53,748 nucleotides of DNA from Bacillota bacterium (GTDB lineage: Bacteria > Bacillota > Clostridia > TANB77 > CAG-508). Each line of letters starts with the position of its first letter. Position 1 is the first letter of the stretch. Both the position numbers and the translations under genes were made by a program. Shown in pieces: positions 9,080 to 48,801 of the stretch. The notes beneath the pieces were generated by a model. That model was not told the origin of the DNA. It was given only the letters and a program-made list of their open reading frames with translations, and ran no database searches. The stretch spans positions 1-53,748 of the forward strand of contig JBPOHA010000032.1 in NCBI GenBank assembly GCA_052036095.1. Reading direction: 5' to 3'.

Positions 9080-10831
9080 ATGAAAGCAATCGAAATAAGA
9101 AATAAATATTTGAAATTTTTTGAAGCACATGGACATAAAGTAATTCCATCAGCTCCATTAATACCAGAAAATGATTCCTCTGTATTATTTACAACAGCTG
9201 GAATGCAACCATTAGTACCATATTTATTAGGCGAAAAACACCCAGAAGGTACAAGACTTACAGATTATCAAAAATGCTTACGTACTAATGATATCGATGA
9301 AGTAGGTGACAACCGTCACTTAACTTATTTTGAAATGCTTGGAAATTGGTCATTAGGAGACTATTTTAAAGAAGAAGCAATAGCAATGAGCTTTGAATTT
9401 TTAACAAAAGAATTAGGAATTCCAAGCGAAAAATTATCAGTAACTTGTTTTGCAGGAGATGAAGATTGCAAAAGAGATACAGTTACGGCAGATTGTTGGA
9501 GAAAAGCAGGAATACCAGATGAAAGAATATATTTCTATGGAAAAGATGATAACTGGTGGATAGCAGGAGAAGAGGGCCCTTGTGGACCTGATACTGAAAT
9601 GTACTATGATACTGGAAAACCAGCATGCGGACCTGATTGCCAACCATCTTGTGGATGTGGAAAATATGTTGAAATATGGAATAATGTTTTCATGGAATTC
9701 TTAAAGAAAGATGGAAAATATACGAAACTAGCCCAACATAATGTTGATACAGGATTAGGAGTAGAAAGAATGGCAATGTTACTTCAAGGAAAAACTACTC
9801 CATTTGATATAGAAATATTTAAGCCAATAATGGATGAACTTCAAAAATTAGCTAAAAATGATGATATTGCAAGCAGAAGAATTGTAACAGAACATTTACG
9901 TTCTAGTATAATGATAATTGCAGATGGTGGAAGACCAAGTAACTTAGACAGAGGATACATATTAAGAAGATTAATTCGTAGAATGACAAGACATCTTAAT
10001 AAACTTGAAATTGATCTAAATAAATTACCTGAATTAATAGATTTAGATATTGATACATTAAAAGAAATGTATCCAGAATTAGTTTCTAAAAAAGATATAA
10101 TAAAAGAAGTAATAATCGAAGAGAAAGATAAATTTGAAAAAACATTAGCAAATGGTGAAAAAGAATTTAATAAGATTGTAATAAAACTTAAAGGGCAAGG
10201 GAAAGATACTATTGATGGCCAAACTTTATTTACATTATATGAAACTTATGGTTTCCCACCAGAAGTAACAAAAGATTTAAGCACAGAGCAAGGATTAAAA
10301 GTTGATAGTTCAGAGTTTGATAGATTATTTAAAGAGCATCAAGATAAATCTCGTATGGGTAGTGACCAAAAATTCAAAGGTGGATTAGCAAGTACAGGAG
10401 AACAAGAAATAAAATACCATACAGCAACACATTTATTAAATGCAGCTTTAAAAGTAGTAGTTGGAAAAGATGTACATCAAAAAGGATCAAATATAACTCC
10501 TGAAAGAATGAGATTTGATTTTAGTTGTGATCATAAATTAACTGATGAAGAAAAACAAAAAACAGAAGATTTAGTAAACGAATGGATAAATCAAGATTTA
10601 TCAGTAGTTGTTGAAACAATGAAAAAAGAGGATGCTATTAAAACTGGAGCAGAATGTATGTTTATAGAAAAATATCCTGATATAGTTACTGTATATACAA
10701 TAGGCAATGTTTCAAAGGAATTATGTGGTGGACCACATGTAAAACATACCAGTGAAATAGGACATTTTAAAATAGTTAAAGAGGAAGCAAGCTCAGCAGG
10801 AGTAAGAAGAATCAAAGCAGTAGTTGAGTAA
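9080..10831 (+). CDS. alaS: Alanine--tRNA ligase, short form (catalytic + tRNA-recognition + editing core, no C-Ala domain)
   Basis: Class-II AlaRS N-terminus: FFEAHGHKVIPSAPLIP, FTTAGMQP, GDNRHLTYFEMLGNWS, GPCGPDTEMYYD and EIWNNVFMEF. Editing-core zinc motifs are HTATHLL and CGGPHV. The ORF ends right after GVRRIKAVVE at 583 aa. Confidence 0.85.
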   Translation: MKAIEIRNKYLKFFEAHGHKVIPSAPLIPENDSSVLFTTAGMQPLVPYLLGEKHPEGTRLTDYQKCLRTNDIDEVGDNRHLTYFEMLGNWSLGDYFKEEAIAMSFEFLTKELGIPSEKLSVTCFAGDEDCKRDTVTADCWRKAGIPDERIYFYGKDDNWWIAGEEGPCGPDTEMYYDTGKPACGPDCQPSCGCGKYVEIWNNVFMEFLKKDGKYTKLAQHNVDTGLGVERMAMLLQGKTTPFDIEIFKPIMDELQKLAKNDDIASRRIVTEHLRSSIMIIADGGRPSNLDRGYILRRLIRRMTRHLNKLEIDLNKLPELIDLDIDTLKEMYPELVSKKDIIKEVIIEEKDKFEKTLANGEKEFNKIVIKLKGQGKDTIDGQTLFTLYETYGFPPEVTKDLSTEQGLKVDSSEFDRLFKEHQDKSRMGSDQKFKGGLASTGEQEIKYHTATHLLNAALKVVVGKDVHQKGSNITPERMRFDFSCDHKLTDEEKQKTEDLVNEWINQDLSVVVETMKKEDAIKTGAECMFIEKYPDIVTVYTIGNVSKELCGGPHVKHTSEIGHFKIVKEEASSAGVRRIKAVVE

Positions 10832-12868: not shown

Positions 12869-14188
12869 ATGAACGAGAAAAAAAGCTTTAGTGAGTTTTT
12901 AAGTTGTGTTAATTTGGTATCAGCTAATTCAAAAATAAGAGAAATAGAAAGAAACAAGGAAAGAAAATTAACTAAAATGGAAAAAGAAAAAATATATCAA
13001 AAAAGATATATTTTACAAGAGACATCTGACAATAATAAAGTTAATAAATGGTTGCTAAGAAAATCTATAGAAAAATCTATTTTAGGTGAATGCAATGAAA
13101 AAAAGAAAACAATAATAGAACTAGAAAAAGAAGACATTGATAGAATAGTTAAAGAGTGTAAAGATAGGAAAAGTAAAATTATATCAGGTAGTGCCTTTTT
13201 TTTAGCAGGTTGTTTGGCAACTAGTGCAACTGTAGTAGGAATAAATTCTCGTAATACTGGAAATGGTTATCCAACAGTAAAGCAAAAAAATGGTAATTTT
13301 GTAATTGAGCAATCAAATAAGTATATTAAAGATTGCGATGAACATAACTACAGTGATCCAGAAGATTTTGAAGTTAATATGAAAAACGAAACTGGTAATG
13401 TAACTGTTAATAACAAGGATGGAGGTATACATAAAGTATATATAAATAATATTCCTAATGGGAGCGAATGGAATTATAATGATATAACTGATAATTCTGC
13501 TTTATATAATGATACTAATGTTACAATTAATGGATATGTGATTACTAATAAAGAAGTAAATTTAGAAGAGACAGCAAATGCAAAGAGTGTGTCAGAAATA
13601 AATAAATTAAATACCTCAAAGAAAGTTTTGGATTTTGCGAAAGGCATATATATAAAAGAGTATAATAAAAATAATGGTACAAACTACACAATAGACCAAG
13701 TAGAGTTATCAAAAACTAGAAATAATAGTAGCTTGCGTTATTATGATTCTAAAAAAGTTTTCGTAGAAAGTGAAGAAGCTGGCATAGATGAAAAAGCAGA
13801 AAAATTGAATAATAAAGAATTAGGTTTAATTTCAACTTCATTAGGCGAAAAAGTATATCCAGGGGATTATGATTTTTATCCAAAGATGGTAAGTGTATTT
13901 GATAGTCTACAAGAAGCTGATAATCCACCTGCAAATGCAAATATTTCATTAATACATACAGGAGCAGTTTTGACAAATCTTTTGGATTTATATTTGGCAT
14001 TAAACTTAGAAGAAAATGGAAAGAAAAGTGGAGCAGTAGATATTTATACTAAAAGATGTATATCTGCACTAACAAATTATCGTATAGAAGAAGCCTACCG
14101 TGTAATGGAGGAAGATGCATGCACTACATATTCGTATGTTAATGAAAAGAATACAATAGATGATAAAGTGACAGATGATGGAAGATAA
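12869..14188 (+). CDS. Hypothetical single-pass membrane protein (no recognisable domain)
   Basis: 439-aa ORF. It has a Lys/Glu-rich N-terminal region, one TM (IISGSAFFLAGCLATSATVVGI) and an N-rich extracytoplasmic region. The stop is 5 nt before the next CDS. Confidence 0.55.
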   Translation: MNEKKSFSEFLSCVNLVSANSKIREIERNKERKLTKMEKEKIYQKRYILQETSDNNKVNKWLLRKSIEKSILGECNEKKKTIIELEKEDIDRIVKECKDRKSKIISGSAFFLAGCLATSATVVGINSRNTGNGYPTVKQKNGNFVIEQSNKYIKDCDEHNYSDPEDFEVNMKNETGNVTVNNKDGGIHKVYINNIPNGSEWNYNDITDNSALYNDTNVTINGYVITNKEVNLEETANAKSVSEINKLNTSKKVLDFAKGIYIKEYNKNNGTNYTIDQVELSKTRNNSSLRYYDSKKVFVESEEAGIDEKAEKLNNKELGLISTSLGEKVYPGDYDFYPKMVSVFDSLQEADNPPANANISLIHTGAVLTNLLDLYLALNLEENGKKSGAVDIYTKRCISALTNYRIEEAYRVMEEDACTTYSYVNEKNTIDDKVTDDGR

Positions 14189-15427: not shown

Positions 15428-16081
15428 ATGAAAAAAGTTATATTAAGTATAATAATTATTTTAGTTATAGTTTTGTTAGGATTAGGAGGATATTTACTTT
15501 ATACTAAACTTAATGCAAAGAATATTGATGTGTCTGCAATTAATATTGCAAATTCAGCAGAAGTAAAAAATATGGTAAATGAAAGTTCGAATAAAGTAGA
15601 AAATATAGTAGAAAGTCAAAATGCAAATAAAATAGAAAGCCAAAATGCAAATAAAATAGAAAGCAAAAATGCAAATAAAATAGAAAGCCAAGAAACAAAT
15701 GCGACAGAAAGTCAAGAATCAATAATTAGAAGATTATTTTTAAAAGAGTTAGAAAAAGATAATGAAAATTGTTCAGAAAAATTAGAAGATTACAGAATTG
15801 ATAGTATACAGATATATCAAGGAAAAGAAAGAGAAGATATTATTAGCACTTGGTTTGAAGGTGAGAACGCAAATAGTTTAGAACAAAAGGTTAATATATC
15901 ATCAGCATCAATTTTTGCTAGTGTAAATTATTCTGTTAAACCTAAAGATATTAATAATACTGTTTGGATAGCAGGAAGTGGATCTGCAGATAAAGAAGGC
16001 TGGTTAAATAAAGGATCATATGTATATGCAGACAAAAAAGACGGAAATTATGAAATTATTGATAGTGGAACTGGTTGGTAA
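15428..16081 (+). CDS. Hypothetical N-terminally anchored/secreted protein with (ESQNANKI)x3 repeat
   Basis: 217 aa. GGAG RBS, N-terminal TM/signal and a 24-bp coding tandem repeat around 15605-15680. Confidence 0.55.
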   Translation: MKKVILSIIIILVIVLLGLGGYLLYTKLNAKNIDVSAINIANSAEVKNMVNESSNKVENIVESQNANKIESQNANKIESKNANKIESQETNATESQESIIRRLFLKELEKDNENCSEKLEDYRIDSIQIYQGKEREDIISTWFEGENANSLEQKVNISSASIFASVNYSVKPKDINNTVWIAGSGSADKEGWLNKGSYVYADKKDGNYEIIDSGTGW

Positions 16082-20834: not shown

Positions 20835-23522
20835 TTATACAAATTTATTGAGATTTCCATTAGTAAAATCTGCTCCACTAAAAGGTTCATCTAATTTAAC
20901 ATTTTTTAATATATTACATATAGAATCAATATCTTCATCTAATATACTAACTAATAAATTGCTTATAGGAATATCACTATATTTTATAGAAGTAATCTTG
21001 CTATTGTAAATTGTAGTTATTGTTTGAAGATTATCAGGTATAATTCTAAATTTGTATCCTAGTCTATCTTTTAAATAATATTTAGCACTTTCTCTACAAC
21101 CAAGACTGCAAGTTGGATAACATTTATTAGATGATCCTAATAAGCAATATCCAGTATTCATTACAGGTAGTTTTCCATATACCATAAATTCAGTAGAAAG
21201 TGATGAATTTTTTGCTAAATCTTGCAATGTTTTTTTGTCTAATTCAGGAGAAAGCATTACTCTATTAATTCCAAGAGATTTAAGTTCTTCTATTGTATGT
21301 GTATTAAATACATTTAAAGTATAATTAGATACAATATCTAATTTATTAGCATATTTAACCATAAATTCAATTCCAGAAATATTAGATATAACAATTCCTT
21401 TTACACTAAAATCTTTTATATAATCATCTATATTATTAAAGAAAATATTTCTGAAATTATCTTTTTTTATAGTTGGAAGATAGATGTATAATTTTGAATT
21501 TTGTGAAATCATTTTAATAATATCATGATATGATTTATTTAAAAAGAACTTTAATGGTATGTAGATATTATTTAATAATTTGTAATCTAATTTTGAATAA
21601 TCAAAATCTAAATTTATTTCATTTAATAACAGAGAAATTGGTCTATTATTTAGTGAGTTTTCATTTTTTAAAATAGAGCTATTATTTTCATTCAAAGTAT
21701 TGGTGCTATTCGTAATTTCATTATCTATATTAAATTTATTTTCAGATGTTGATGATTCAACATTCAATAAAATAGAATTTTTATCTAAATTTGTATTAAG
21801 TGGAATAGAGTCATTATTATTTGAATCAAAAATATCATTTCTTTCAAATCTTTTTATTGCTTGATTTTCTAAATCTTCTACAATTTCACGTCTTAGTTCA
21901 TTAATTGCAGAAATTTTAGGAATATAAGTATTATCATCTAGCACAATTTTTATATTTTTAAATTCAAAAGGAGTATCAGTTGTTTTATTTAATTGTTCAC
22001 TTATTCTTTCAGCAGTTATAGGACTACTTATGGCATCAATTGGTATAATATCAATTTGCTTATGAGATGCCATTGAGAAATAACTGCCATTTTCAGTATC
22101 CATAGAAAGTACATCAAGTGTAATTGGCAATCCTTTTTTTACAGTCATAACGCATGAAAGAGGTATTTTTTTATTTTCTTTATTTGAAAATTCAGCCACT
22201 TCTTTTGAAAGAGTATTACTGCTTAATTTATAAACTTTGTCTCCTAAATTCAAATTTCCTTTGACTCTACCAATTGTTATAATGTCACCTGGCAAAGCAT
22301 TAGGAATATTTTCATTATTTTTTAGTAATTCTGAAACGGTATATTTATGTTCTTCATGTTCTACAGAAAAATTGTCACCTATTTTTAAAGATTCAGAGGT
22401 TGTGAGTGTTATTAAACTTTTAGTATTATTTATATTAGAAATATTTCCAATATATAATCCTATATTATTAGGTTTTTCTTTATATACATACGAAGTATTA
22501 GGCTCATCTGAGAAATTTCCTTTAGAAAATCCACCACGATTAAATACTAGCATAAGACTTTTTATGTCGTTTTCGTCTACTGTATATGGTTTGTCAGATA
22601 AAGCTAAATCTATATATTTTCTATATATTTTAGTAACTACTGATACATATTCAGGGGGTTTCATTCTACCTTCAATTTTAAAACATTTGACACCTGCTTT
22701 TATTAAATCAGGTATATATTCCAATCCACATAAATCTCTTGGACTTAGCAAATATCCTTTATCTAAAACAGTATAATTATTAGATTGTTCACATATCTTT
22801 TGAGAATTTGCTAAATTATTGTTTAATAAATTAGTATCAAAATTATTTTTTATATTATTGCAAAAAATATTTTTATTACTATTGTCTAATAAATTAGAAT
22901 CTTGATTAATATTTTCTTTTAATAATTCATATGGTAATCGACAAGGCTGTGCACATCGACCACGATTACCAGAACGGCCACCTATTGTACTAGAAAATAA
23001 ACATTGACCAGAATAAGATATGCACAACGCACCATGAATAAAAGTTTCAATTTCAACATTAGAATTATGACAAATATATTCGATCTCTGATAAAGACAAT
23101 TCACGAGAAAGAACGACTCTTTTAAATCCAAGGTTTTGAAGTGCAATAACACCTTGAAGATTATGAGCAGTAATTTGTGTGCTAGCATGAATATCCATAT
23201 CAGGATATTTATTAATAAGATATTTAGCAAATCCTAAATCTTGCACAATTATAGCATCAGCTCCAAGAGTATAAACATAGTTTGCAAGTTTAGCAGCATC
23301 TTCAAATTCATCATCTTTAAGCAAAGTATTTAAAGTAAAATTAATTTTTACATTTCTAAGCTTGGCATATCTAATTGCATTTTTAAGTCCTTCTTCATCA
23401 AAGTTAGAAGCAGAAGTACGTGCATTAAAAAGTTGCCCACCAAAGTAAACGCTATCGGCACCACTTTGAACAGCAGCTTTTAAACATTCAAAATCTCCAA
23501 CAGGAGATAGTAGCTCAATCAT
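20835..23522 (-). CDS. Peptidase U32 family protein, long form with a C-terminal second U32-like half and N-rich insertions
   Basis: N-terminus MIELLSPVGDFECLKAAVQSGADSVYFGG. U32 core segments are HASTQ, VLSRELS, ETFIHGALC.SYSGQC and GRSGNRGRCAQPCR. ATG at 23522 is preceded by GGAGG. The track ORF extends to 23582 but lacks an RBS there. Confidence 0.85.
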   Translation of the reverse strand: MIELLSPVGDFECLKAAVQSGADSVYFGGQLFNARTSASNFDEEGLKNAIRYAKLRNVKINFTLNTLLKDDEFEDAAKLANYVYTLGADAIIVQDLGFAKYLINKYPDMDIHASTQITAHNLQGVIALQNLGFKRVVLSRELSLSEIEYICHNSNVEIETFIHGALCISYSGQCLFSSTIGGRSGNRGRCAQPCRLPYELLKENINQDSNLLDNSNKNIFCNNIKNNFDTNLLNNNLANSQKICEQSNNYTVLDKGYLLSPRDLCGLEYIPDLIKAGVKCFKIEGRMKPPEYVSVVTKIYRKYIDLALSDKPYTVDENDIKSLMLVFNRGGFSKGNFSDEPNTSYVYKEKPNNIGLYIGNISNINNTKSLITLTTSESLKIGDNFSVEHEEHKYTVSELLKNNENIPNALPGDIITIGRVKGNLNLGDKVYKLSSNTLSKEVAEFSNKENKKIPLSCVMTVKKGLPITLDVLSMDTENGSYFSMASHKQIDIIPIDAISSPITAERISEQLNKTTDTPFEFKNIKIVLDDNTYIPKISAINELRREIVEDLENQAIKRFERNDIFDSNNNDSIPLNTNLDKNSILLNVESSTSENKFNIDNEITNSTNTLNENNSSILKNENSLNNRPISLLLNEINLDFDYSKLDYKLLNNIYIPLKFFLNKSYHDIIKMISQNSKLYIYLPTIKKDNFRNIFFNNIDDYIKDFSVKGIVISNISGIEFMVKYANKLDIVSNYTLNVFNTHTIEELKSLGINRVMLSPELDKKTLQDLAKNSSLSTEFMVYGKLPVMNTGYCLLGSSNKCYPTCSLGCRESAKYYLKDRLGYKFRIIPDNLQTITTIYNSKITSIKYSDIPISNLLVSILDEDIDSICNILKNVKLDEPFSGADFTNGNLNKFV

Positions 23523-23669
23523 TATTTCCTCCAAATATTTAAATTTCTCTAAATATTGTAACACAAAAAATACAAATTGCATACTATGTAATATAAAATA
23601 ATTTGTGAGATAAGATATATAAACAGTTATTACATAGAAATTATAATCTCACGAGAAAAGGAGATAATT

Positions 23670-23828
23670 ATGGGTAATGATAATTCTTGCTGTTGCGGAG
23701 GACTAGGAGGAAATTCAAATAATTTTTTAGATGACATATTTAACAATCAAAATACTGAGATACTTTTATTTTTAGTAGTATTTTTACTATTATTTACGAC
23801 TTATGGAAAAAAAGGGTCAATATTATAA
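23670..23828 (+). CDS. Small (52 aa) Cys/Gly-rich hydrophobic peptide, hypothetical
   Basis: Not in the ORF track (under 60 aa). Strong RBS AAAGGAG lies 7 nt before the ATG. Translation is MGNDNSCCCGGLGGNSNNFLDDIFNNQNTEILLFLVVFLLLFTTYGKKGSIL. TATAAT is at 23642-23647. Confidence 0.35.
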   Translation: MGNDNSCCCGGLGGNSNNFLDDIFNNQNTEILLFLVVFLLLFTTYGKKGSIL

Positions 23829-25328: not shown

Positions 25329-25357
25329 TTGATATTTTATAAAACTTAGTGTATGAT
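25329..25357 (+). promoter_or_regulatory. Putative promoter of the 25399-30323 gene set (TTGATA-N17-TATGAT)
   Basis: TTGATA at 25329-25334 and TATGAT at 25352-25357 with a 17-nt spacer. GGAGG RBS precedes the 25399 start. Confidence 0.35.
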
Positions 25358-25398
25358 AATATAGAAAGAAAAAATGGACATAATAATAGGAGGAGAAA

Positions 25399-25791
25399 AT
25401 GATGAAAAGGACAATCATTGTTATTACTATTTTCTTAAGTATTCTAAGTGTTGGTTCAGTATATGCAGAAACAATTTCAAATCAGACTAAGAGCCAGTTA
25501 ATAGAAATTAAAGATAATGAATTAAAGTCAATGGAAGATTATCAACAAGCCTACGGAAATACTACATACGGAACAGTAGCTTATGTACTTAATAAAGTTA
25601 GAATATATAGTATTCCTTTTGCAATATTAGGAATAGCAATAAGTGCTATTTATGAATATGTAATAGGATTAAGGCATGCAGAATCAAGAGATAAAGGATT
25701 CAATTCAATGATAGCAATAGTAACTTTGCTAGTAATATGCCAAGTATTGCCATTAATATTTGCTATCATAGTAAAAGGTTGGAGGGGTTAA
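25399..25791 (+). CDS. Small membrane protein: signal peptide plus two TM helices, hypothetical
   Basis: 130 aa. Signal-like N-terminus is IIVITIFLSILSVGSVYA. Two hydrophobic helices follow (IPFAILGIAISAIYEYVIGL and MIAIVTLLVICQVLPLIFAIIV). The stop is 4 nt before the next start. Confidence 0.6.
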   Translation: MMKRTIIVITIFLSILSVGSVYAETISNQTKSQLIEIKDNELKSMEDYQQAYGNTTYGTVAYVLNKVRIYSIPFAILGIAISAIYEYVIGLRHAESRDKGFNSMIAIVTLLVICQVLPLIFAIIVKGWRG

Positions 25792-25795
25792 ACAA

Positions 25796-27784
25796 ATGAA
25801 GGTTTTATTTGCAGTAAGTAATGATAATATAACAACATCAGTTGTTAATAGATATCAACAAAAATTTAAGGAAATAATAACTAGTAAAAATGTATATTAT
25901 TTTAATGCAATAATAAAAGAATTACAAAAAGACAAAACATACGACATAGTTGTAATTGGAGAGGATTTAGAACCAATTTCCAATAATAATTATGATGCAG
26001 TTGATAAATTTATATTTGAAAAGCTTGATAGTATAAGCGATGAGGCATCAAAACCAACAGGTGAGGATATCCCAATTATACTAATTTGCTCTGATAGAAG
26101 GACAAAGTCAGACCAATTATTAATAAAATTATTTGGAATAGGCGTTTATAATGCCTTATTAGGTAATGACAGAAGCATAGATATGGTATGCAATTTAATT
26201 GCAAAGCCACGTAATAAAAAAGAAGCTAAGAATTACTACAAAATAGAGTCAAATGATGTAGAATATAAGCCGGAAACCGATAGCGATGTGAGCGAATCAG
26301 AAATACAAAGTATATTAGCACATTATAAGAAAGTAGGAAATAATGAAAAAAAATGTGTTGAAAGTTTTGATAGCATTGCTGAACAATATACGGATTCACA
26401 ATTAAGAATAATAGTTACATTCTTACCAATTAGTGTAAAAGCTATTTTGGAAGCTAATTCACCAAGATATCAACAATTAATGACAAGTGGAACAGTATTA
26501 ACAAATGGAAAATATATGCAATACAATAAACAACCAGTTACGAAACCAGGAAATATTGACGTGTTAACTAAAGACTTGGAAAAGCCAAAACTAAATGAAC
26601 CAGTAATAATACCAGCTACGATGAATATTCAAGAAAAATTGGAAAATGAATTAAAAAAAGGAATATCACAACAAAGCTATAACCAGTCAACTAATGTTAT
26701 AAATCAATATGGACAACCAAATTACAATAAGAATTTTCAGCAGTCAAATTATAATCAATCAAGCAATGTTGCAAATCAATATATGCAACCAAATTACAAT
26801 AAAAATACCCAGCAGTCAAATTATAATCAATCAAGCAATGTTGCAAATCAATATATGCAACCAAATTACAATAAAAATACCCAACAGGCAAATTATAATC
26901 AATCAAGCAATGTTGCAAATCAATATATGCAGCCAAATTATAATGCAAATACCCAACAGGCAAATTATAATCAATCAAGCAATGCTGCAAATCAATATAC
27001 ACAGCCAAATTATAATACAAATACTCAACAAGCAAATTATAATATAAATAATGAAAATCAATTTCAAAATGATAATCTTAATGCACAATACAACGATAAA
27101 AAAAATGCAAATATGACATTTAATATAGAAGAATTAGCTACTCCAGTAAAAAATAATAATAATGAAGTTAATGTTGAATCTAATAAAGATTTAAACAAAT
27201 TGTTAAATCAAACCCCTTCTTTAAATAATTTTAATGATGCTAAAAATACAACTATGCCAGTACAAGAAGAAAAAAGTAGTATATTGCCAGGACTAGAAGA
27301 AACAAGTAGTGTATTGCCAGGAATGGATGAAACAAGTAGTGTATTGCCAGGACTAGAAGAAACAAGCAGTGTATTGCCAGGAATAGATGAAACAAGCAGT
27401 GTATTGCCAGGACTAGAAGAAACAAGTAGTGTATTGCCAGGAATAGATGGAACAAGTAATGTATTGCCAGGAACAGATGAAACAAGTAATGTATTGCCAA
27501 AAGCAGAAAATGAAAATATATCTGCAAATCAGTTAGTAGTGCAACCAGAAAATTTATTAACTACAATGCAAACAAATACTTCTTTGCAAAATTTTCCAAC
27601 AGAAGGGGAAACTATTAGAAGAAGAGGTAGACCAAGAAAAGTTTATACTGGTGATATAATTGAAAATCAAGTAGATTCTACACCAAAAAGAAGAGGCAGA
27701 CCAAGAAAAGTTGTTGATGAGCCAAATAATCAACAATTATTTCAAAATGAATTTAATAATATGCAAGTAGATAATACGAATTAA
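25796..27784 (+). CDS. Repeat-rich protein: receiver-like N-terminal domain, Q/N/Y-rich 24-aa repeats, (ETSSVLPG[LI][ED]) repeats, two AT-hooks. Ends at an in-repeat TAA
   Basis: The N-terminus has alternating beta/alpha character (KVLFAVSND...YDIVVIGEDLEP...IPIILICSD), which looks like a CheY-like fold. RRRGRPRK is at 27617-27640 and KRRGRPRK at 27686-27709. It is in the same frame as the next ORF. Confidence 0.7.
   Translation: MKVLFAVSNDNITTSVVNRYQQKFKEIITSKNVYYFNAIIKELQKDKTYDIVVIGEDLEPISNNNYDAVDKFIFEKLDSISDEASKPTGEDIPIILICSDRRTKSDQLLIKLFGIGVYNALLGNDRSIDMVCNLIAKPRNKKEAKNYYKIESNDVEYKPETDSDVSESEIQSILAHYKKVGNNEKKCVESFDSIAEQYTDSQLRIIVTFLPISVKAILEANSPRYQQLMTSGTVLTNGKYMQYNKQPVTKPGNIDVLTKDLEKPKLNEPVIIPATMNIQEKLENELKKGISQQSYNQSTNVINQYGQPNYNKNFQQSNYNQSSNVANQYMQPNYNKNTQQSNYNQSSNVANQYMQPNYNKNTQQANYNQSSNVANQYMQPNYNANTQQANYNQSSNAANQYTQPNYNTNTQQANYNINNENQFQNDNLNAQYNDKKNANMTFNIEELATPVKNNNNEVNVESNKDLNKLLNQTPSLNNFNDAKNTTMPVQEEKSSILPGLEETSSVLPGMDETSSVLPGLEETSSVLPGIDETSSVLPGLEETSSVLPGIDGTSNVLPGTDETSNVLPKAENENISANQLVVQPENLLTTMQTNTSLQNFPTEGETIRRRGRPRKVYTGDIIENQVDSTPKRRGRPRKVVDEPNNQQLFQNEFNNMQVDNTN
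26669..27043 (+). repeat. 72-bp coding tandem repeat (about 5 copies) encoding QQ(S/A)NYNQSSNVANQYMQPNYN(K/A/T)NT
   Basis: Direct reading of the DNA and the translation. It also creates spurious long ORFs on other frames and strands (26697-27035 -, 26709-27047 +). Confidence 0.9.
27266..27500 (+). repeat. 30-bp coding tandem repeat (about 8 copies) encoding ETSSVLPG(L/I/M)(E/D)
   Basis: Direct reading: gaagaaacaagtagtgtattgccaggacta-type units repeated back to back. Confidence 0.9.
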
Positions 27785-28135
27785 TATTCAAATAGAAATC
27801 AAGTAGACAATACGAATTCATATTCAAATAGCAATCAAGTAGACAATACGAATTCATATCAAAATAGCAATTCAGTAGACAATACGAATTCATATTCAAA
27901 TAGCAATCCAGTAGACAATACGAATTCATATCAAAATAGCAATCCAGTAGATAATACGAATTCATATTTAAATAGCAATCCAGTAGACAATATGAATTCA
28001 TATTCAAATAGCAATCCAGTGGATAATACGAATCCATATTTAAATAGCAATCCAGTAGATAATATGAATTCATATTCAAATAGCAATCCAGTAGAAAATA
28101 TGAACCCATATTCAAACAGCACTCCAGTAGAAAAT
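27755..28135 (+). repeat. 36-bp coding tandem repeat (about 10 copies) encoding NSNPVDNTNSYS. It spans the stop of ORF 25796-27784 and the start of ORF 27992-29161
   Basis: Units of the type aat agc aat cca gta gac aat acg aat tca tat tca read continuously in one frame from before 27782 to about 28135. Confidence 0.9.
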
Positions 28136-29161
28136 ATAGATAATTTTAGTGCACAACAAGAGACTAATAAATCAAATGATGATTTAATTGCTATTCAAAA
28201 TAATCAGCAATATAAGAACAACCTCTCATTTACAGGAATTGGAAAATTGGTAGCATTTATAGGGACGAGTAAAAATGGAACATCATTTATTGTAAATAAT
28301 TTGGCACAATTACTTTCACAAAGTGGAATAAATGTAGCGATATTAGATGTTACTAAAAATAAAAATTCATATTATATGTTTACAGATAATAATCCAGAAT
28401 TAGTGAAGGTAGCAACAGACAGTATAAAGAATTTGTCAGAAGGAAGAACACAAGGATTAAAAGTAAATGCAAAGTTGACTGTTTATACATCATTACCAGG
28501 AGAAATTGAAGAAAATGATAATCCTAAGATAATGTTACAAACACTATCAAGTAATTATGATGTTACACTTATAGACTGTGATTTTAAATCAGATATTTCA
28601 TATTTTACTGATGTAAATGAAATATATTTAGTTCAATCAATGGATGCATTAACAATTCAGCCATTAACACAATTTTTAAATGACTTAAAAAATAGAAATT
28701 TGTTAGTAGAAAGTAAACTTAGAGTTATTATAAATAAATATGTTAGATTAAAAATGTTAAATGATAAAATGATAATAGCAGGTATGTCAAGATATAATGA
28801 ACCTTCAATGACACTACAAAAAGATTTATTTAATAGAGATACAATTAAATATATTGATATTCCATTTGAAATGCAAACATACGAAAGATATCTTGAAGAA
28901 ATAGCTTTATGTCAAATTTCGATAAATGGATATTCTCAACAATTTATTGAAAGCTTAAATGAACTAAAAAATATGGTATATCCTCTTATATCTGGAAGAA
29001 ACAGTGGAAATTATGAAAAAAAAGTAAATAGTGTGTATAATAATTACGAAAAGACAAAAAAACATGGCTTTTTCGGATTAAGAAAACCAAAGCAACAACA
29101 AGCAACACAATTCTCTGGTGATGTAAATGATACATTAAACAAAATGAGATCAAATTTTTAG
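27992..29161 (+). CDS. ParA/MinD-fold protein with degenerate Walker A. The reading frame is open upstream to 27785
   Basis: By eye it aligns with MinD/ParA: VAFIGTSKNGTSFIVNNLAQLLSQSGINVAILDV corresponds to the xxSGKGGVGKTT...VxxxDxD region, VTLIDCDF to the Walker B region, and RVIINKY to the later conserved strand. There is no RBS before the ATG at 27992, which sits inside the repeat array. Confidence 0.65.
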   Translation: MNSYSNSNPVDNTNPYLNSNPVDNMNSYSNSNPVENMNPYSNSTPVENIDNFSAQQETNKSNDDLIAIQNNQQYKNNLSFTGIGKLVAFIGTSKNGTSFIVNNLAQLLSQSGINVAILDVTKNKNSYYMFTDNNPELVKVATDSIKNLSEGRTQGLKVNAKLTVYTSLPGEIEENDNPKIMLQTLSSNYDVTLIDCDFKSDISYFTDVNEIYLVQSMDALTIQPLTQFLNDLKNRNLLVESKLRVIINKYVRLKMLNDKMIIAGMSRYNEPSMTLQKDLFNRDTIKYIDIPFEMQTYERYLEEIALCQISINGYSQQFIESLNELKNMVYPLISGRNSGNYEKKVNSVYNNYEKTKKHGFFGLRKPKQQQATQFSGDVNDTLNKMRSNF

Positions 29162-29183
29162 CATTATATAAATTAGAAATGAG

Positions 29184-30323
29184 GTGAATTTTTTGATATT
29201 AGGCATAATAATATTATTAGTTACAATTGTTATAATTTTAATGATATATAACTATTCTGTCCATAAAAAAATAGATACTTTTACAAATTTAAATCAAAGA
29301 GTTACTAGCCTTAATATTTTACAAGAATTTATGAATACTCTAGGTGAGAGCACGTCTATAAACGAAAAGTTAGAAAATATTAATGACATATTAATTAATA
29401 AGTATTCTATAAAATATTCTACGATAGTCGTATTTGATGGTTCTGAGTATGTAGTAAAGGCCTCAAATGTTGATAAAAAGCATTGGGAAACTTTAAAAAA
29501 CTTACAAAGTGATCCAGTTTTTGGAGATAGTATAAAAACAGCTACTCCTAAATACGTTACAGTCGATAATGAAAGTGAAAAATTGCCTTATCAAAAAATG
29601 GAATTTGGAAGAGCAAAATGTGCAATGTTCTTTCCACTATATGTAGAAAATGTATATATTGGATATTGGATTATAGAAGGTAGTGTTCCACACGAATTTG
29701 ACAAAATGGACACGACAATTTTGGAAGTCGTACGAGATAACATTGTAACAATATTAAAGACTGTAGAAAATCAGGCAACAATCGAAAATATAGTAAGAGA
29801 TGACTTATATTCAGGCTTAAAGTCAGCAGAATATTTGTATGGAGAAGGAAAGAAAAAGATTGATCAGTATACTACATCTGCAATATGTTTATTTAAAATT
29901 AGTAATTTGTTAGAGATAGACAATAATGTAAGTAGAAAAACTGGAGATAATGTAATTACAATTATATCAAAGACAGTTAAAGAAAATTTGGCTGATAATT
30001 ATGTTTTTGTACGTTATATGGGTCCAAAATTTGCTATAGTATTTTCAGGGGCAGATGTTAATGGAGTTATGAATTTTATGACATCTATTAAAGAAAGATT
30101 AGAACAATTGAAAATACAAGCTGCAGACGATTATTTTAAAGATATCTCTAATCAAAGGGAAAGTGAAAATCAAAAAATAGTTAGCAGACCTACTATTGCT
30201 GTAAGCCCTAAGATAAGAGCTGTAATCTCTACATATTATAAAGGAACATCATTAGATGGTGCTTTAAAAAAGCTAGAAGAGTATATAGATTCTTCAAATG
30301 AAAATAATATAATATCAATGTAA
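29184..30323 (+). CDS. Membrane-anchored GAF-like + degenerate GGDEF-domain protein
   Basis: N-terminal TM. The central region is GAF-like ([18 protein letters not shown]...[19 protein letters not shown]). The C-terminal region has GGDEF-fold landmarks: [10 protein letters not shown] (for DxLTGLxNR), TGDNVI (for GHxxGDxVL) and RYMGPKF in place of RxGGDEF. The start is uncertain (GTG 29184 or TTG 29193 after GAGGTG). Confidence 0.7.
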
Positions 30324-30349: not shown

Positions 30350-30604
30350 ATGGCTACAGATGAAACAGTAAGTTTTAATGTTGAAAGAGAAGAAAATGCT
30401 AAAACGAAAGAAATATTAAAAGATGTGTATGATGCTTTACAAGAGAAAGGCTATAATCCAATTAATCAAATAGTAGGTTATATATTATCTGGTGATCCAA
30501 CATATATTACTAGCCATAAAGGTGCACGTAATTTAATAAGACAAGTTGAAAGAGACGAACTTCTTGAAAAGATGGTAAAAGAATACATTAATGTTAATAA
30601 ATAA
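30350..30604 (+). CDS. ireB: IreB-family regulatory phosphoprotein (UPF0297 / YrzL)
   Basis: 84 aa. The conserved core is [40 protein letters not shown]. It lies immediately upstream of ruvX, as in Bacillus (yrzL-yrrK). Confidence 0.85.
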
Positions 30605-30610
30605 AAAAAT

Positions 30611-30666
30611 CGGAACGCTAATAAACTAATAATTTTTATTGTTTTAAGCGTTCCGTAAGTTTTTTC
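30611..30666 (+). terminator. Possible intrinsic terminator (large loop)
   Basis: Stem CGGAACGCT (30611-30619) / AGCGTTCCG (30647-30655), followed by TAAGTTTTTTC. The 27-nt loop lowers confidence. Confidence 0.45.
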
Positions 30667-30783
30667 TTATTAAAAGCTATTTTTTATAATATTATTAATA
30701 GAATAACAAAAAAATGCAAGAATAGTATATAGAAATATGGAAGATAAGTATAAAATAAAAAAATTACTAGAATAGGATAAGAT

Positions 30784-31203
30784 ATGAGTAGAAAATTAGG
30801 AATTGATTACGGTATTTCAAGAACAGGAATAGCAATAACAGACGAATTAGGAATAACTGCACAAGGATTAGAAACTATAACTTCAAATGGAAATGACAAA
30901 GCGATATTAAGGAGAATAGCAGCACTACTTGAACAATATGATATTGATACTTTTGCAATTGGAAATCCTTTAAATATGGATGGAACAGAAAGCAAGAGGT
31001 CAATAGAAACTGACGAGTTCATTCATAAATTGAAGTCAAGGTTTAACAATATTGAAATAGTAAAAGTAGACGAAAGACTAACAACGGTTGAAGCACATAA
31101 AACTATGAATTTATTAAATATAAATAATAGGAAAAAGAAAGAAGTAGTAGACACTATTGCAGCAGTATATATATTAGAGGGTTATATTAATAAAAAAAAG
31201 TAA
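30784..31203 (+). CDS. ruvX: Holliday-junction resolvase-like / pre-16S rRNA nuclease RuvX (YqgF)
   Basis: 139 aa. N-terminus is LGIDYGISRTGIAITDELGITAQGLETI. DERLTTVEA is also present. This is the typical YqgF family. Confidence 0.9.
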   Translation: MSRKLGIDYGISRTGIAITDELGITAQGLETITSNGNDKAILRRIAALLEQYDIDTFAIGNPLNMDGTESKRSIETDEFIHKLKSRFNNIEIVKVDERLTTVEAHKTMNLLNINNRKKKEVVDTIAAVYILEGYINKKK

Positions 31204-32141: not shown

Positions 32142-32855
32142 ATGTCTGACTTAAGTAAAAAGTACGATAAAATTCTATTAGAATTAAAAGATAAGATTAA
32201 GAATCCAGAAGAATATCAATTTGTAAAGGATAAAGTAAGTGAACTTACAATAATGTTCATGGATTCAATTGATAAGTTTATAGAACTTCAAAATAATCAA
32301 GAAAAAATAGAAAATAAAATAAAAAAGATTCAAAAAGATATAAAACACATTCAAAGCGATTTTTACGTAGAAGAAGATGATGAGTGCAACAATTGTAATT
32401 CTGAATGTGATGATGATGAATGCAATAATTGTAATTGTGGATGTGATGATGATGAATGCGACCACAACAATTGTGAATATGACAATGATAAAGAATGCGA
32501 ATTTGAAATTATTTGCCCATATTGCGATTATGAATTTATTGCTGGTAATACATCAAAAAATACAGACGTAATTGAATGTCCAAAATGTCATAAAATGATT
32601 GAACTTGATTGGAATGACGAAGAATGCGATTGCGAGTCTTGTTCATCATGTTGCTCAGACGAAAAAAATGAAAGTCAAGTATGCAAAAAAACAAATAATA
32701 TTGAAAAAGTTGCTGAAGATTCTACCAATTATGATATTGATTCAAAAAATGAATCAAGTAAAGATTTAGAAAGTTCTAAAAGCAAAGATAATATATTAAA
32801 TTCTAAAAAGAAAAATAAGAATATTTCAAATAATAAAAATGAAGATGATATGTAA
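32142..32855 (+). CDS. Cys/Asp-rich protein with zinc-ribbon motif, conserved position downstream of efp (hypothetical)
   Basis: 237 aa with a coiled-coil-like N-terminus. The (DDDECNNCNC)-type Cys/Asp repeats are followed by CPYC...CPKC (zinc ribbon) and a C.C.SC.SCC cluster. The tail is K/N/S-rich. Confidence 0.6.
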   Translation: MSDLSKKYDKILLELKDKIKNPEEYQFVKDKVSELTIMFMDSIDKFIELQNNQEKIENKIKKIQKDIKHIQSDFYVEEDDECNNCNSECDDDECNNCNCGCDDDECDHNNCEYDNDKECEFEIICPYCDYEFIAGNTSKNTDVIECPKCHKMIELDWNDEECDCESCSSCCSDEKNESQVCKKTNNIEKVAEDSTNYDIDSKNESSKDLESSKSKDNILNSKKKNKNISNNKNEDDM

Positions 32856-38708: not shown

Positions 38709-40193
38709 ATGTTAAGGAGAATTAAATTGAAAAATAAAATATTAGGAGCTGTAGATTATAAAGATGAATTAGCTAATATAATTGAAATAAAAGGATTTGG
38801 AGAAGAAATCGAAAATCTTTTACTTAGTATGCTTTATAAAGCAGAAGATGGATTTGTAAATTATTCAATAGTGAAAAGAGAAGTACCAACTCAAGCTGAG
38901 TTGGCACAAGAAATAGTAGAAAATGTAAAAAAATATTGTAAAGAAATTATAATAGCAGAACCTAATTCTGACTTAGCAAAAGAACTAAAGGAAAAAAGAT
39001 GTAAAATTATTCCGGAAGAAAATGAATATGAAAAAGGACAAAAAGTTATATCTTTTCCAAATGAAAAAACATTATTATATGGAATAACAAAAGCTGGAAT
39101 TATTAATAAAATAAAAGGTGATATGACTTTAGAGGAAAAAGCTATTTTGACAGCTATTAATATTGGAAAATGTATATCTACTTCAGAAGTAATAAGAGAT
39201 TTTAATGGGTGGTCATGGTCGATAGTTGAAAAAGAGATAGAAAATACGCAATGCAACATAATATATAATTTTTTAGTTTTCCTTCTTGGATATAGTTTTG
39301 TTGAATCAATTACAGATATTAGAAGTTTAAAAAATAACATTCCAGAAAGTTTATATGAAGAAATTAAGAAGGTTTCAATAGAATTTTATCGTACTTATGA
39401 TGTTGAAGAAAATGAAAAATTATTAAATGAATTATCAATATATAAAGCAAAGTTACAAAAAATGCGAAATCAGGTTTTATATCAAGAAGAAATTACAAGA
39501 AAGAAAAAAGAAGACTTATCAGAGATAAAACATATAGATGAAATTCTAAATAATCCACAAGAACTAAAAAACGAGTATATTGAATTAAATAGCAAATTGA
39601 CAAATGAAAATAAAATATTTAGTGTAAGCAATTATGAAGAAATAGTTGAAGAAAAAAGAAAAAGTTTGATTAGTGAGTTAGCTGAATTTAATAGAATGCA
39701 GAATCCAACAGAGTTTACAAAGATAAAAGAGGAATTATTAGTAAAAATAAAATTAATTGAAGAAAAAACTGATATTTCAAAATTAGAAAAAGAGTTTTTG
39801 AAATGTTTTGAAACTAAAATTGATATGTCAAATGATAGAAAGACAATATTGAATTTAATATATGAAACTAGATATTTAAATTTCTTGCCGAATTGCAAAA
39901 TGAGGTTAAATGATATAGAAGAAAAATTAATTCCAAAGGCAATCGAATTAGGAGTTATAAATCCAATTTCAAATAATAATGAATTAGATTATAGAATTTT
40001 AAAAGGAATATTTGATTCTCAAGTAGTGTCATTAGAAGGTTTATATATACAACTTTCAACAGCAAAAGAAGGGATATGTGTTGAACTATATGATGGAGAA
40101 GTACATGATAGGACATATATAGCTACGACTCCTGAAGGAAGTGATATTGAAATTAGAAGAACTAAAAAAACAAAAATTTTTGCGAGAATTTAA
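38709..40193 (+). CDS. Hypothetical protein (no recognisable domain, coiled-coil-rich middle)
   Basis: 494-aa ORF with normal coding composition for this genome. No motif recognised by eye. Confidence 0.55.
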   Translation: MLRRIKLKNKILGAVDYKDELANIIEIKGFGEEIENLLLSMLYKAEDGFVNYSIVKREVPTQAELAQEIVENVKKYCKEIIIAEPNSDLAKELKEKRCKIIPEENEYEKGQKVISFPNEKTLLYGITKAGIINKIKGDMTLEEKAILTAINIGKCISTSEVIRDFNGWSWSIVEKEIENTQCNIIYNFLVFLLGYSFVESITDIRSLKNNIPESLYEEIKKVSIEFYRTYDVEENEKLLNELSIYKAKLQKMRNQVLYQEEITRKKKEDLSEIKHIDEILNNPQELKNEYIELNSKLTNENKIFSVSNYEEIVEEKRKSLISELAEFNRMQNPTEFTKIKEELLVKIKLIEEKTDISKLEKEFLKCFETKIDMSNDRKTILNLIYETRYLNFLPNCKMRLNDIEEKLIPKAIELGVINPISNNNELDYRILKGIFDSQVVSLEGLYIQLSTAKEGICVELYDGEVHDRTYIATTPEGSDIEIRRTKKTKIFARI

Positions 40194-48463: not shown

Positions 48464-48801
48464 ATCAAATTTGAAGATATAATTATAGTTAAAATATTAT
48501 GATATTAACATTTAGAAATCTAGAGTGGGTACTATATTTCAAATATGTTACGTTTTCATTATTTGCTTGACTAATAAAAGACAGAATGATAAAATTATAA
48601 TGTTAAAAGTCGAAAAATGTAAGAAAAAATAGATAAGTACCAAAAGTGCTAATTAATGACATATATATTATAGCTTTAAAATCTCATATTATATTAAAAA
48701 AGTTAGCAAATTATAAATTATATGAACGATAAAATGGTAATTATATGTTATAAAATAATGTAACAATTTAAATGATTTTCTATAAAGCGGAGGAAAAAAA
48801 G

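Follow-up and report, generated by a model that had tools for sequence, protein, structure and literature searches.

The 53,748 nucleotides of contig JBPOHA010000032.1 (GenBank assembly GCA_052036095.1), from a Bacillota bacterium of the clostridial order TANB77, are referred to here as the window. Between positions 25,329 and 30,323 the window carries a cassette of co-directional genes, A, BC and D, which stands ahead of ireB and ruvX. Gene BC, whose product combines a receiver-like domain, AT-hooks and a degenerate ParA/MinD-like domain, had been read in an initial annotation as two genes, B and C, and the cassette as four. It is near certain that B and C are one gene, cut in the window by a single TCA to TAA change; it is likewise near certain that A-BC-D forms the front of a packed ireB-ruvX operon, which has been conserved by a large clade of gut Clostridia, uncultured and of low GC content. 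The features of the cassette are given below, with lengths in amino acids (aa), open reading frames (ORFs) named A to D, tandem arrays as reported by Tandem Repeats Finder (TRF) and structure models from AlphaFold2 (AF2).

25329-25357, + strand: promoter-like site TTGATA-17-TATGAT, 10/12 matches
25388-25396, + strand: Shine-Dalgarno sequence AGGAGGAG upstream of gene A, read from the sequence
25399-25791, + strand: ORF A (gene A), 130 aa; signal peptide (..VYA), outside segment of ~45 aa, first transmembrane helix, short basic loop, second transmembrane helix ending ..QVLPLIFAIIVKGWRG
25796-27784, + strand: ORF B, 662 aa (ORF2 of the four-gene view)
25796-29161, + strand: gene BC, 1121 codons, with one in-frame stop in the window copy
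25796-26203, + strand: pseudo-receiver (beta-alpha)5 domain of BC, aa 1-136 (AF2 model, Foldseek)
26216-26485, + strand: five-helix domain of unknown type, aa 141-230 (AF2 model, conserved in the alignment)
26678-27043, + strand: 72-nt tandem array, 5.1 copies, Q/N-rich spacer (TRF)
27265-27499, + strand: 30-nt tandem array, 7.8 copies, [DE]ETSSVLPG[LIM] motifs (TRF)
27617-27640, + strand: AT-hook 1, RRRGRPRK, aa 608-615 (sequence and orthologue alignment)
27686-27709, + strand: AT-hook 2, KRRGRPRK, aa 631-638 (Pfam AT_hook E 0.011, below the cut-off)
27766-28136, + strand: 36-nt tandem array, 10.3 copies, NSYSNSNPVDNT repeats (TRF)
27782-27784, + strand: in-frame TAA stop; TCA (Ser) in strain L092 and in the repeat consensus
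27992-29161, + strand: ORF C, 389 aa (ORF3 of the four-gene view)
28229-28996, + strand: ParA/MinD-like (SIMIBI) domain with degenerate motifs (Pfam CbiA 27.1 bits, cut-off 25.4)
28262-28285, + strand: P-loop GTSKNGTS, degenerate, with Thr for the Walker A Lys; invariant in the family alignments
29111-29158, + strand: conserved C-terminal tail FSGDVNDTLNKMRSNF, after KKHGFFGLRK (family alignments)
29184-30323, + strand: ORF D (gene D), 379 aa; N-terminal transmembrane helix, sensor-like domain, catalytically dead GGDEF domain
30018-30032, + strand: MGPKF in place of GG[DE]EF, invariant as FVRYMGPKF

The four ORFs are separated by 4 nt (A to B), 207 nt (B to C) and 22 nt (C to D). The initial annotation had given their common direction, their coordinates and the 4-nt and 22-nt gaps correctly, and had counted four genes where there are three, A, BC and D. 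Three grounds unite B and C. The first is the reading frame: the 207-nt gap is open in the frame of both ORFs, and the translation of 25796-29161 meets a single stop. This TAA falls in the first unit of the 36-nt array; when the units are set in register, the same position is occupied by TCA (Ser) in units 2-7 and 9 and by CCA in units 8 and 10, the serine codons being the reason to regard the stop as one C to A change. The second is the family: in 76 of 76 complete loci drawn from a collection with one genome per species, a single uninterrupted ORF of 693-1208 aa runs from the receiver-like N-terminus to the ParA-like C-terminus, and the four exceptions among metagenome loci, with an interrupted BC, correspond to scaffold N-gaps or to one frameshift. 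The third is a very close strain. The 90%-identity cluster of ORF C includes the 1061-aa protein P0509, encoded on contig L092, which has the gene order of the window, flanks 99.4-99.7% identical to it, Ser at the position of the window's stop codon and an intact BC of 1061 aa.

What the stop means for this genome is a narrower question. The TAA would be either a very recent nonsense allele, with loss of the ParA-like half, or an assembly or base-call error within the repeat, the gene being intact; that this copy alone is dead or misassembled in one of these ways is given an even chance. That a single C to A change sets the copy apart from both the repeat consensus and the nearly identical strain argues for it, and so does the lack of a ribosome-binding site at the downstream starts, no Shine-Dalgarno-like motif preceding any restart codon between 27785 and 28250, the candidates ahead of the ParA-like domain. 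The 1.4 kb that follow the stop carry no further defects and the copy retains all the family-invariant residues, which fits a very recent event or an error. In addition, BC of L092 (L092:6001-9186) is shorter than the window copy by two 72-nt units and one 36-nt unit, which points to a stretch that is unstable or hard to assemble, the length of the spacer either evolving fast or being misassembled. This account, for its part, bears on a single copy and leaves the nature of the family as it is. Should the stop be real, only the 662-aa N-terminal piece, with the receiver and the AT-hooks, would be made efficiently, the ParA-like half having no ribosome-binding site of its own. No identical contig or contig of the same strain was found in two scans of JGI metagenome contigs.

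The repeats of BC systematically break the assembly and the annotation of the gene. Gene callers split it or drop it on their account, and here the split was read as two genes. A programmed phase variation through the repeats was considered and rejected, because the units of all three arrays are divisible by three. Elsewhere, in the metagenome scaffolds L001-L003 from relatives, the BC spacer is interrupted by runs of N, and 2.4-2.6 kb go without a called gene; at L004:7316-9596 (NCBI GCA_037193195.1) the BC orthologue is frameshifted near codon 46 and is called as a 46-aa stub plus a 531-aa protein.

Downstream of D the cassette continues into ireB and ruvX:

30350-30604, + strand: ireB (Pfam IreB E 1e-39), 26 nt after D
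30611-30668, + strand: terminator-like hairpin with a U-run after ireB, fold -20.2 kcal/mol, z -4.3
30784-31203, + strand: ruvX, 179 nt downstream of ireB here, abutting or overlapping ireB in most relatives

The order A-BC-D-IreB-RuvX is maintained in essentially all of about 85 loci, with median gaps of 4 nt from A to BC (85 loci), 16 nt from BC to D, 15 nt from D to IreB (84 loci) and -1.5 nt from IreB to RuvX. The genes thus co-occur in related genomes, as had been required of a true module. The view that the module had been inserted between a cell-wall hydrolase and the ireB-ruvX pair is wrong, since it forms one tight, conserved array with that pair, and a mobile-element or insertion reading was rejected on the housekeeping-gene context and the conserved synteny. 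The glucosaminidase neighbour upstream is mostly confined to closer relatives.

Judging from the sequence, ireB is probably the last gene of the cassette transcript in this window; the hairpin that follows it has a long loop and was missed by a simple terminator scan. At the other end, a strong AGGAGG precedes ATG 25399, the start of gene A. The window has a GC content of about 27%, and the promoter-like site gives weak evidence for a promoter in such AT-rich DNA, because sites of this kind are not enriched over shuffled sequence (76 observed, 62.7±7.2 expected). Hence the single promoter-like site and single strong ribosome-binding site on which an operon had been assumed are both present, the former being no commoner than in shuffles. 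The interval between ireB and ruvX is unusual in the window, with a hairpin separating genes that overlap in most relatives.

The cassette is flanked in the window by a G5-SH3-glucosaminidase gene upstream and by the genes of IreB, RuvX and elongation factor P (EF-P) downstream. The rest of the window is an ordinary Firmicute chromosome, with YlmH, enolase, alanyl-tRNA synthetase, sortase, a U32 peptidase, YtxC, FtsK/SpoIIIE, RadA, DisA and four tRNAs. No pilus, flagellar, Min (minC/minE) or Par/partition (parB) genes were found across its whole 53.7 kb, so the lack of such genes beside the cassette, stated previously for its neighbourhood, extends to the entire window.

The family is large. 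The N-terminal domain of BC (N-domain) gathers 413 clusters at 50% identity; the best 150 matches of the search of representatives were examined and are all clear family members, about 127 weak ones lying at E values of 1e-10 to 1e-3. Among the matches listed the domain is always N-terminal, in proteins of up to 1434 aa. In the one-genome-per-species set 559 stretches match, and the best 80 genome matches are all metagenome-assembled genomes of uncultured Clostridia, for instance Clostridium sp. CAG:793, CAG:273 and Candidatus Merdicola. With matches in hundreds of species genomes, the cassette forms a tightly conserved operon that is part of the core of a large uncultured gut clade. If this clade is the order TANB77, it has been linked to immunotherapy response (PMC11680825).

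Distant members of the family share the same build of receiver-like domain, spacer and ParA-like domain. Their spacers are ER/K-rich, Pro-rich or Q/N-rich, their P-loops read G[AT]xKxGT[TS]F and AT-hooks are mostly absent. Homologues of A adjoin the distant BC genes, the copy at locus L087 being 35% identical (E 6e-22). L087 has the order A-BC-IreB-RuvX-DUF1292, with no D, and at locus L089 A, BC and D are all present, D bearing the motif LGPKF. Because distant loci keep A, BC and ireB-ruvX without D, as L087 does, and mostly without hooks, the ancient core is taken to be A and BC beside ireB, D being accessory and both D and the AT-hooks later additions. A number of distant proteins, P0458, P0469, P0473, P0474, P0483, P0488 and P0491 among others, have ER/K-rich spacers like single alpha-helices and KKGLF(G)-type tails, and no AT-hooks.

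That the combination is uncharacterised, as first proposed, agrees with the searches: there is no Pfam, NCBIfam or PADLOC family for A, for the N-domain or for the cassette, and a literature search on the themes of AT-hook/ParA/MinD, IreB/RuvX/DUF1292 and nucleoid or membrane tethers found no description of it. An anti-phage defence system was rejected, since none of the four ORFs has a PADLOC match.

The N-terminal region of BC (aa 1-230) was modelled with a predicted local distance difference test (pLDDT) score of 79, as a (beta-alpha)5 domain followed by a five-helix bundle. In a Foldseek search of the PDB, the top matches of the former are the N-terminal domains of CpaE2 (4myr; E 5e-4, template modelling (TM) score on the target 0.72), CpaE (4n0p) and 4dad, a Burkholderia pilus-assembly protein. 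Ordinary receivers (ComE, NarL, Spo0A) follow close behind, from E ~1e-3. The receiver active-site positions, read from the strand ends of the model, hold S-N-[DE]-N in the beta1 loop and E-D at the end of beta3, and no K-P follows beta5. The CheY-like pseudo-receiver of the initial annotation is therefore correct as a fold, as the AF2 and Foldseek comparison with CpaE N-domains indicates, and has no counterpart at the sequence level, no sequence-profile match having been obtained among all PDB chains or in Pfam, Response_reg included. The helical domain has no profile match in the PDB and no helix-turn-helix (HTH) signature was detected in it.

Between its folded parts BC has a hypervariable spacer of 147-663 residues, unalignable across species. 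In the window this spacer is made up of the 72-nt and 30-nt tandem arrays, which correspond to the low-complexity linkers previously described as joined to the receiver-like domain. The AT-hooks predicted with them are also genuine family features, although the Pfam AT_hook score of 15.9 stays under the cut-off of 17.4: two hooks with GRP cores, of consensus KRGRGRPKK and a median of 23 aa apart, are kept in 72 of the 76 orthologues. Acidic [LIVM]PG[FLIVM] motifs occur in at least one copy in 60 of the 76. These LPG-phi motifs look like a linear binding motif for some partner; FtsZ C-terminal-peptide mimics and FHA/phospho-Thr sites were both dropped as explanations, because the flanking residues do not fit. 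In the spacers of L005-L084, the stretch from the AT-hooks to the ParA-like domain contains [LIVM]PG[FLIVM][DE] motifs in up to nine copies.

The C-terminal 300 residues of BC match Pfam CbiA in 33 of 38 members, with weak MipZ matches in 18 of the 38. A PDB profile search with the ParA-like domain, up to E=10, yielded bacterial tyrosine kinases (BY-kinases) only, with CapB at E 5e-3, and the ORF matches NCBIfam eps_fam weakly. In the alignment to CapB an invariant N-G-T-S lies over A-G-K-S and D-l-T over D-G-D. Hence the Walker A Lys and the second Walker A' Asp are both Thr, invariantly in the family, and Walker B (LLDCD) is retained; the ParA/MinD fold lacking the P-loop Lys, as originally described, holds. 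The C-terminal tail was examined for membrane-binding character. The amphipathic moment of the terminal 16-mer averages 0.38, against a background of 0.24±0.13, with 16% of tails above the 95th percentile, and 18 of the 77 subclade members carry a basic-G-phi-phi motif. A basic-GLF(G) ending similar to that of MinD is seen in about 17 of 22 distant members.

The two other products are membrane proteins. An alignment of 27 orthologues gives A a cleavable signal peptide and two transmembrane helices joined by a short basic loop, in agreement with the signal-peptide mini-protein with two transmembrane helices first annotated; A itself has no Pfam, NCBIfam or PADLOC match. D, which may start at GTG 29184 or at the in-frame TTG 29193, has one N-terminal transmembrane helix followed by HKK, and by the positive-inside rule its bulk should be cytoplasmic. 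A conserved domain of about 150 residues follows the helix and precedes a GGDEF-fold domain, which is supported by Pfam GGDEF (28 bits, cut-off 23.8), by a PDB profile match to DgcR (6zxb; E 6e-11) and by Foldseek matches to GGDEF domains. At the position of the DgcR D-x-D motif D has L-F-K, and MGPKF stands at that of GG[DE]EF; both are invariant, so that the GGDEF fold without GGDEF seen in the initial annotation is a family trait. Spacing known from PleD-type cyclases places the I-site five residues upstream of the GGDEF site, where D has A-D-N-Y and, invariantly, no RxxD. Lacking the GGDEF motif, DxD and RxxD, the domain is considered dead. The GAF sensor assigned to the same protein was not confirmed: no GAF sequence match was obtained in PDB or Pfam, and the sole hint is the top Foldseek match of residues ~55-200, the GAF-GGDEF protein Dcsbis (TM 0.3), from a region modelled at pLDDT below 50. 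The AF2 model of D is poor as a whole (pLDDT 53), its alignment having been limited to relatives of 72-79% identity.

We propose, tentatively and with somewhat less than even confidence in a mechanism read from sequence, that BC serves as a positional scaffold akin to TadZ and MinD, for the most part non-catalytic, and bridges the nucleoid and the membrane. In the model, BC would be a poor nucleotide binder that hydrolyses ATP slowly or not at all, and not an ATP-driven ParA motor. The AT-hooks would keep it on the AT-rich nucleoid, the ParA-like domain together with the tail would dock it at the membrane, and the spacer would set the reach between them. Likely docking partners would be A, the translationally coupled two-helix protein, and D, anchored in the membrane and with a dead GGDEF domain, the latter acting as a receptor or adaptor rather than as a cyclase. 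The pseudo-receiver would mediate oligomerization or recruitment of a partner. The outcome would be a DNA-membrane bridge or landmark, and co-expression with ireB suggests an output concerning envelope growth or division. A nucleoid-tethered scaffold, as first put forward, is the most economical reading. The hooks are conserved, and the degeneracies of the GGDEF motif and P-loop are invariant; the further idea that the hooks replace the DNA binding of ParA does not hold for the family as a whole, as most distant members lack them. If the scaffold exists as proposed, it would show how a fold known from positional ATPases can be turned into a static tether.

The closest known arrangement is that of TadZ/CpaE. 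TadZ proteins serve as localization factors and are marked by an atypical receiver domain together with the Walker-like motif K/RGGXGXS/T (bioRxiv 10.64898/2026.07.08.737194). BC likewise places an N-terminal atypical receiver-like domain before an atypical ParA/MinD-type domain, its canonical Walker A lysine is lost, and its expected role is that of a localization hub rather than a motor. The analogy drawn at the outset is even stronger than claimed, since the receiver-like and ParA-like parts lie on one polypeptide in all 76 relatives and the N-domain finds CpaE and CpaE2 as its best PDB matches, a resemblance at the fold level only and marginally better than that to ordinary receivers. The differences are several. 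BC has an extra helical domain and, between the two shared domains, the long spacer with AT-hooks; its P-loop GTSKNGTS agrees with K/RGGxGxS/T in the final G-x-[ST] alone, and the Walker A' Asp is lost too; its ATPase domain has no sequence match to TadZ/CpaE in the PDB profile search to E=10 or in NCBIfam; and BC stands always beside ireB-ruvX and never beside tad/cpa, in the window and the flanks of about 85 loci.

These same observations bear on the proposal that BC is a TadZ/CpaE paralogue which positions a Tad-like pilus machine encoded elsewhere, with A and D as accessory membrane factors. The CpaE/CpaE2 matches, the TadZ build of receiver plus atypical ParA, and the pilin-like size and hydrophobic layout of A, a signal peptide with two hydrophobic helices, would all suit it, and a conserved Tad-like pilus cluster has been reported in TANB77-order genomes (PMC11680825). 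That cluster, however, already has TadZ-like and CpaE-like genes of its own (PMC11680825), and no tad/cpa genes were found in the window or within ~6-10 kb in the ~85 loci. Moreover, the PDB profile search yields BY-kinases and no TadZ/CpaE ATPase domain, the K/RGG part of the Walker-like motif is absent, and the advantage of CpaE (best E 5e-4) over ordinary receivers (from ~1e-3) is marginal. A pilus function is thus unlikely.

The comparison with other positional ATPases is equally mixed. With MinD, BC shares the SIMIBI ParA/MinD fold and membrane association as the expected mode of action, and the basic-GLF(G) tail of distant members resembles the MinD membrane-targeting helix. Unlike MinD, it lacks KGGxGK[ST], has a large N-terminal extension and, in this subclade, a weakly amphipathic tail, and no minC/minE lie beside it in the window and flanks. 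From ParA/Soj it differs in that the catalytic Lys and the second Walker A' Asp are both Thr, invariantly, with no parB nearby. On motif, locus and sequence homology the cassette belongs neither to TadZ/CpaE nor to MinD. BY-kinases (CapB/Wzc) are the sole solved structures found by the ParA-like profile, but BC has neither the Walker A lysine nor a C-terminal tyrosine cluster, and no capsule or exopolysaccharide genes are nearby. The Noc and RacA tethers of Firmicutes are alike in concept only, chromosomal DNA being held together with a membrane or landmark. Noc is a ParB-like protein and RacA an HTH protein, and the fold of BC is unrelated to both; in BC, moreover, DNA binding is predicted to occur through non-specific AT-hooks. 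D recalls staphylococcal GdpS, with a membrane-anchored N-terminus and a GGDEF fold without the catalytic motif (NCBIfam GdpS, a weak E 1.3e-4), and differs from it in having one transmembrane helix, a cytoplasmic sensor-like domain and the motif MGPKF, all its matches being far below the family cut-offs. Lacking the RxxD I-site, D also differs from known cyclic di-GMP receptors. No earlier case is known in which a pseudo-receiver of the TadZ kind and AT-hooks of the HMGA type are combined with a ParA/MinD fold short of two catalytic residues and with a partner whose GGDEF domain is dead.

BC might alternatively be a DNA-binding regulator, similar to an orphan response regulator, which under the membrane sensor D tunes ireB-ruvX or many AT-rich promoters. 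The conserved AT-hooks, the sensor-like layout of D and the place of the cassette at the head of the operon would favour such a role, and Foldseek does find an alignment, if a poor one, of the first 225-243 residues with regulators of the NarL/RcsB type (query TM 0.33-0.37, root mean square deviation 10-17 Å). Yet the helical domain has no detectable HTH signature and AT-hooks confer little sequence specificity; a regulator would give the ParA-like domain and the long spacer no role, and distant members have neither hooks nor D. We consider it improbable. No more credit is due to a morphogenetic or sporulation-stage factor, such as a chromosome anchor at the pole or septum in asymmetric division (cf. 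RacA-DivIVA), which would be in keeping with the inferred bridging of DNA and membrane, with Spo0A and a sigma factor in the neighbourhood at L087, with YtxC and FtsK/SpoIIIE in the window and with a peptidoglycan hydrolase or PBP5-type carboxypeptidase upstream in several loci, all of these neighbours, however, being ordinary Firmicute chromosome genes.

The nucleoid-membrane scaffold itself has weak points. DNA binding, membrane binding, oligomerization and the partnerships of BC with A and D are all deduced from the sequences. The AT-hooks are best regarded as an add-on of this subclade, and because most distant members lack them, nucleoid tethering is not the ancestral function of the family. 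The C-terminal tail, which would serve in docking, is weakly amphipathic here, and the association with ireB-ruvX could come from nothing more than housekeeping expression in common. Nor is a non-catalytic nature proven by the loss of the lysine, since the TadZ of E. rectale, in PMC10482377 citing Xu 2012, is described as having lost both conserved lysines and still hydrolysing ATP. These points all weigh against the scaffold.

A still wider proposal can be built on the scaffold, and we regard it as unlikely to hold as a whole. The cassette would be an unrecognized system that couples nucleoid to membrane in uncultured gut Clostridia with small and very AT-rich genomes. In it, a pseudo-ATPase derived from TadZ/MinD, with its own AT-hook anchor on a spacer of adjustable length, would be received by the two-helix and dead-GGDEF membrane proteins. 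It would do the jobs that fall elsewhere to Min, Noc or ParAB, placing division sites or growth zones with respect to the chromosome, and would be wired to the cell-wall control operon of IreB, of the PASTA-kinase pathway. If true, this would offer a handle on cell organization in organisms that cannot yet be cultivated.

Several other features of the window were recorded. At 32142-32855 lies the gene of a 237-aa protein, CxxC-rich and with acidic repeats (ECNNCNSECDDDECNNCNCGCDDDECDH...), with no Pfam match; its counterpart is of 247 aa, also with no Pfam match, between efp and an M23 peptidase in L085 and L086, and of 237 aa in L092. A 52-aa ORF at 23670-23828 (MGNDNSCCCGGLGG...LLFLVVFLLLF...), Cys/Gly-rich at its head and hydrophobic at its tail, may encode a small membrane peptide; in L092 an equally long gene is called at the corresponding position. 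The U32 peptidase (20835-23582, - strand) is unusually long, with 915 aa and Asn-rich low-complexity inserts, the L092 homologue having 895 aa. The alanyl-tRNA synthetase ORF at 9080-10831 (583 aa) holds the catalytic and SAD domains, the usual C-terminal part being absent from the ORF. ORFs of 439, 217 and 494 aa at 12869-14188, 15428-16081 and 38709-40193, respectively, have no Pfam match at E<=1e-3. Finally, apparent surface proteins are encoded at 48772-50922 and 51063-52748, one with SH3_3 repeats and a type I dockerin, the other with cadherin-like domains; the dockerin hints at cohesin-dockerin assemblies in the organism.

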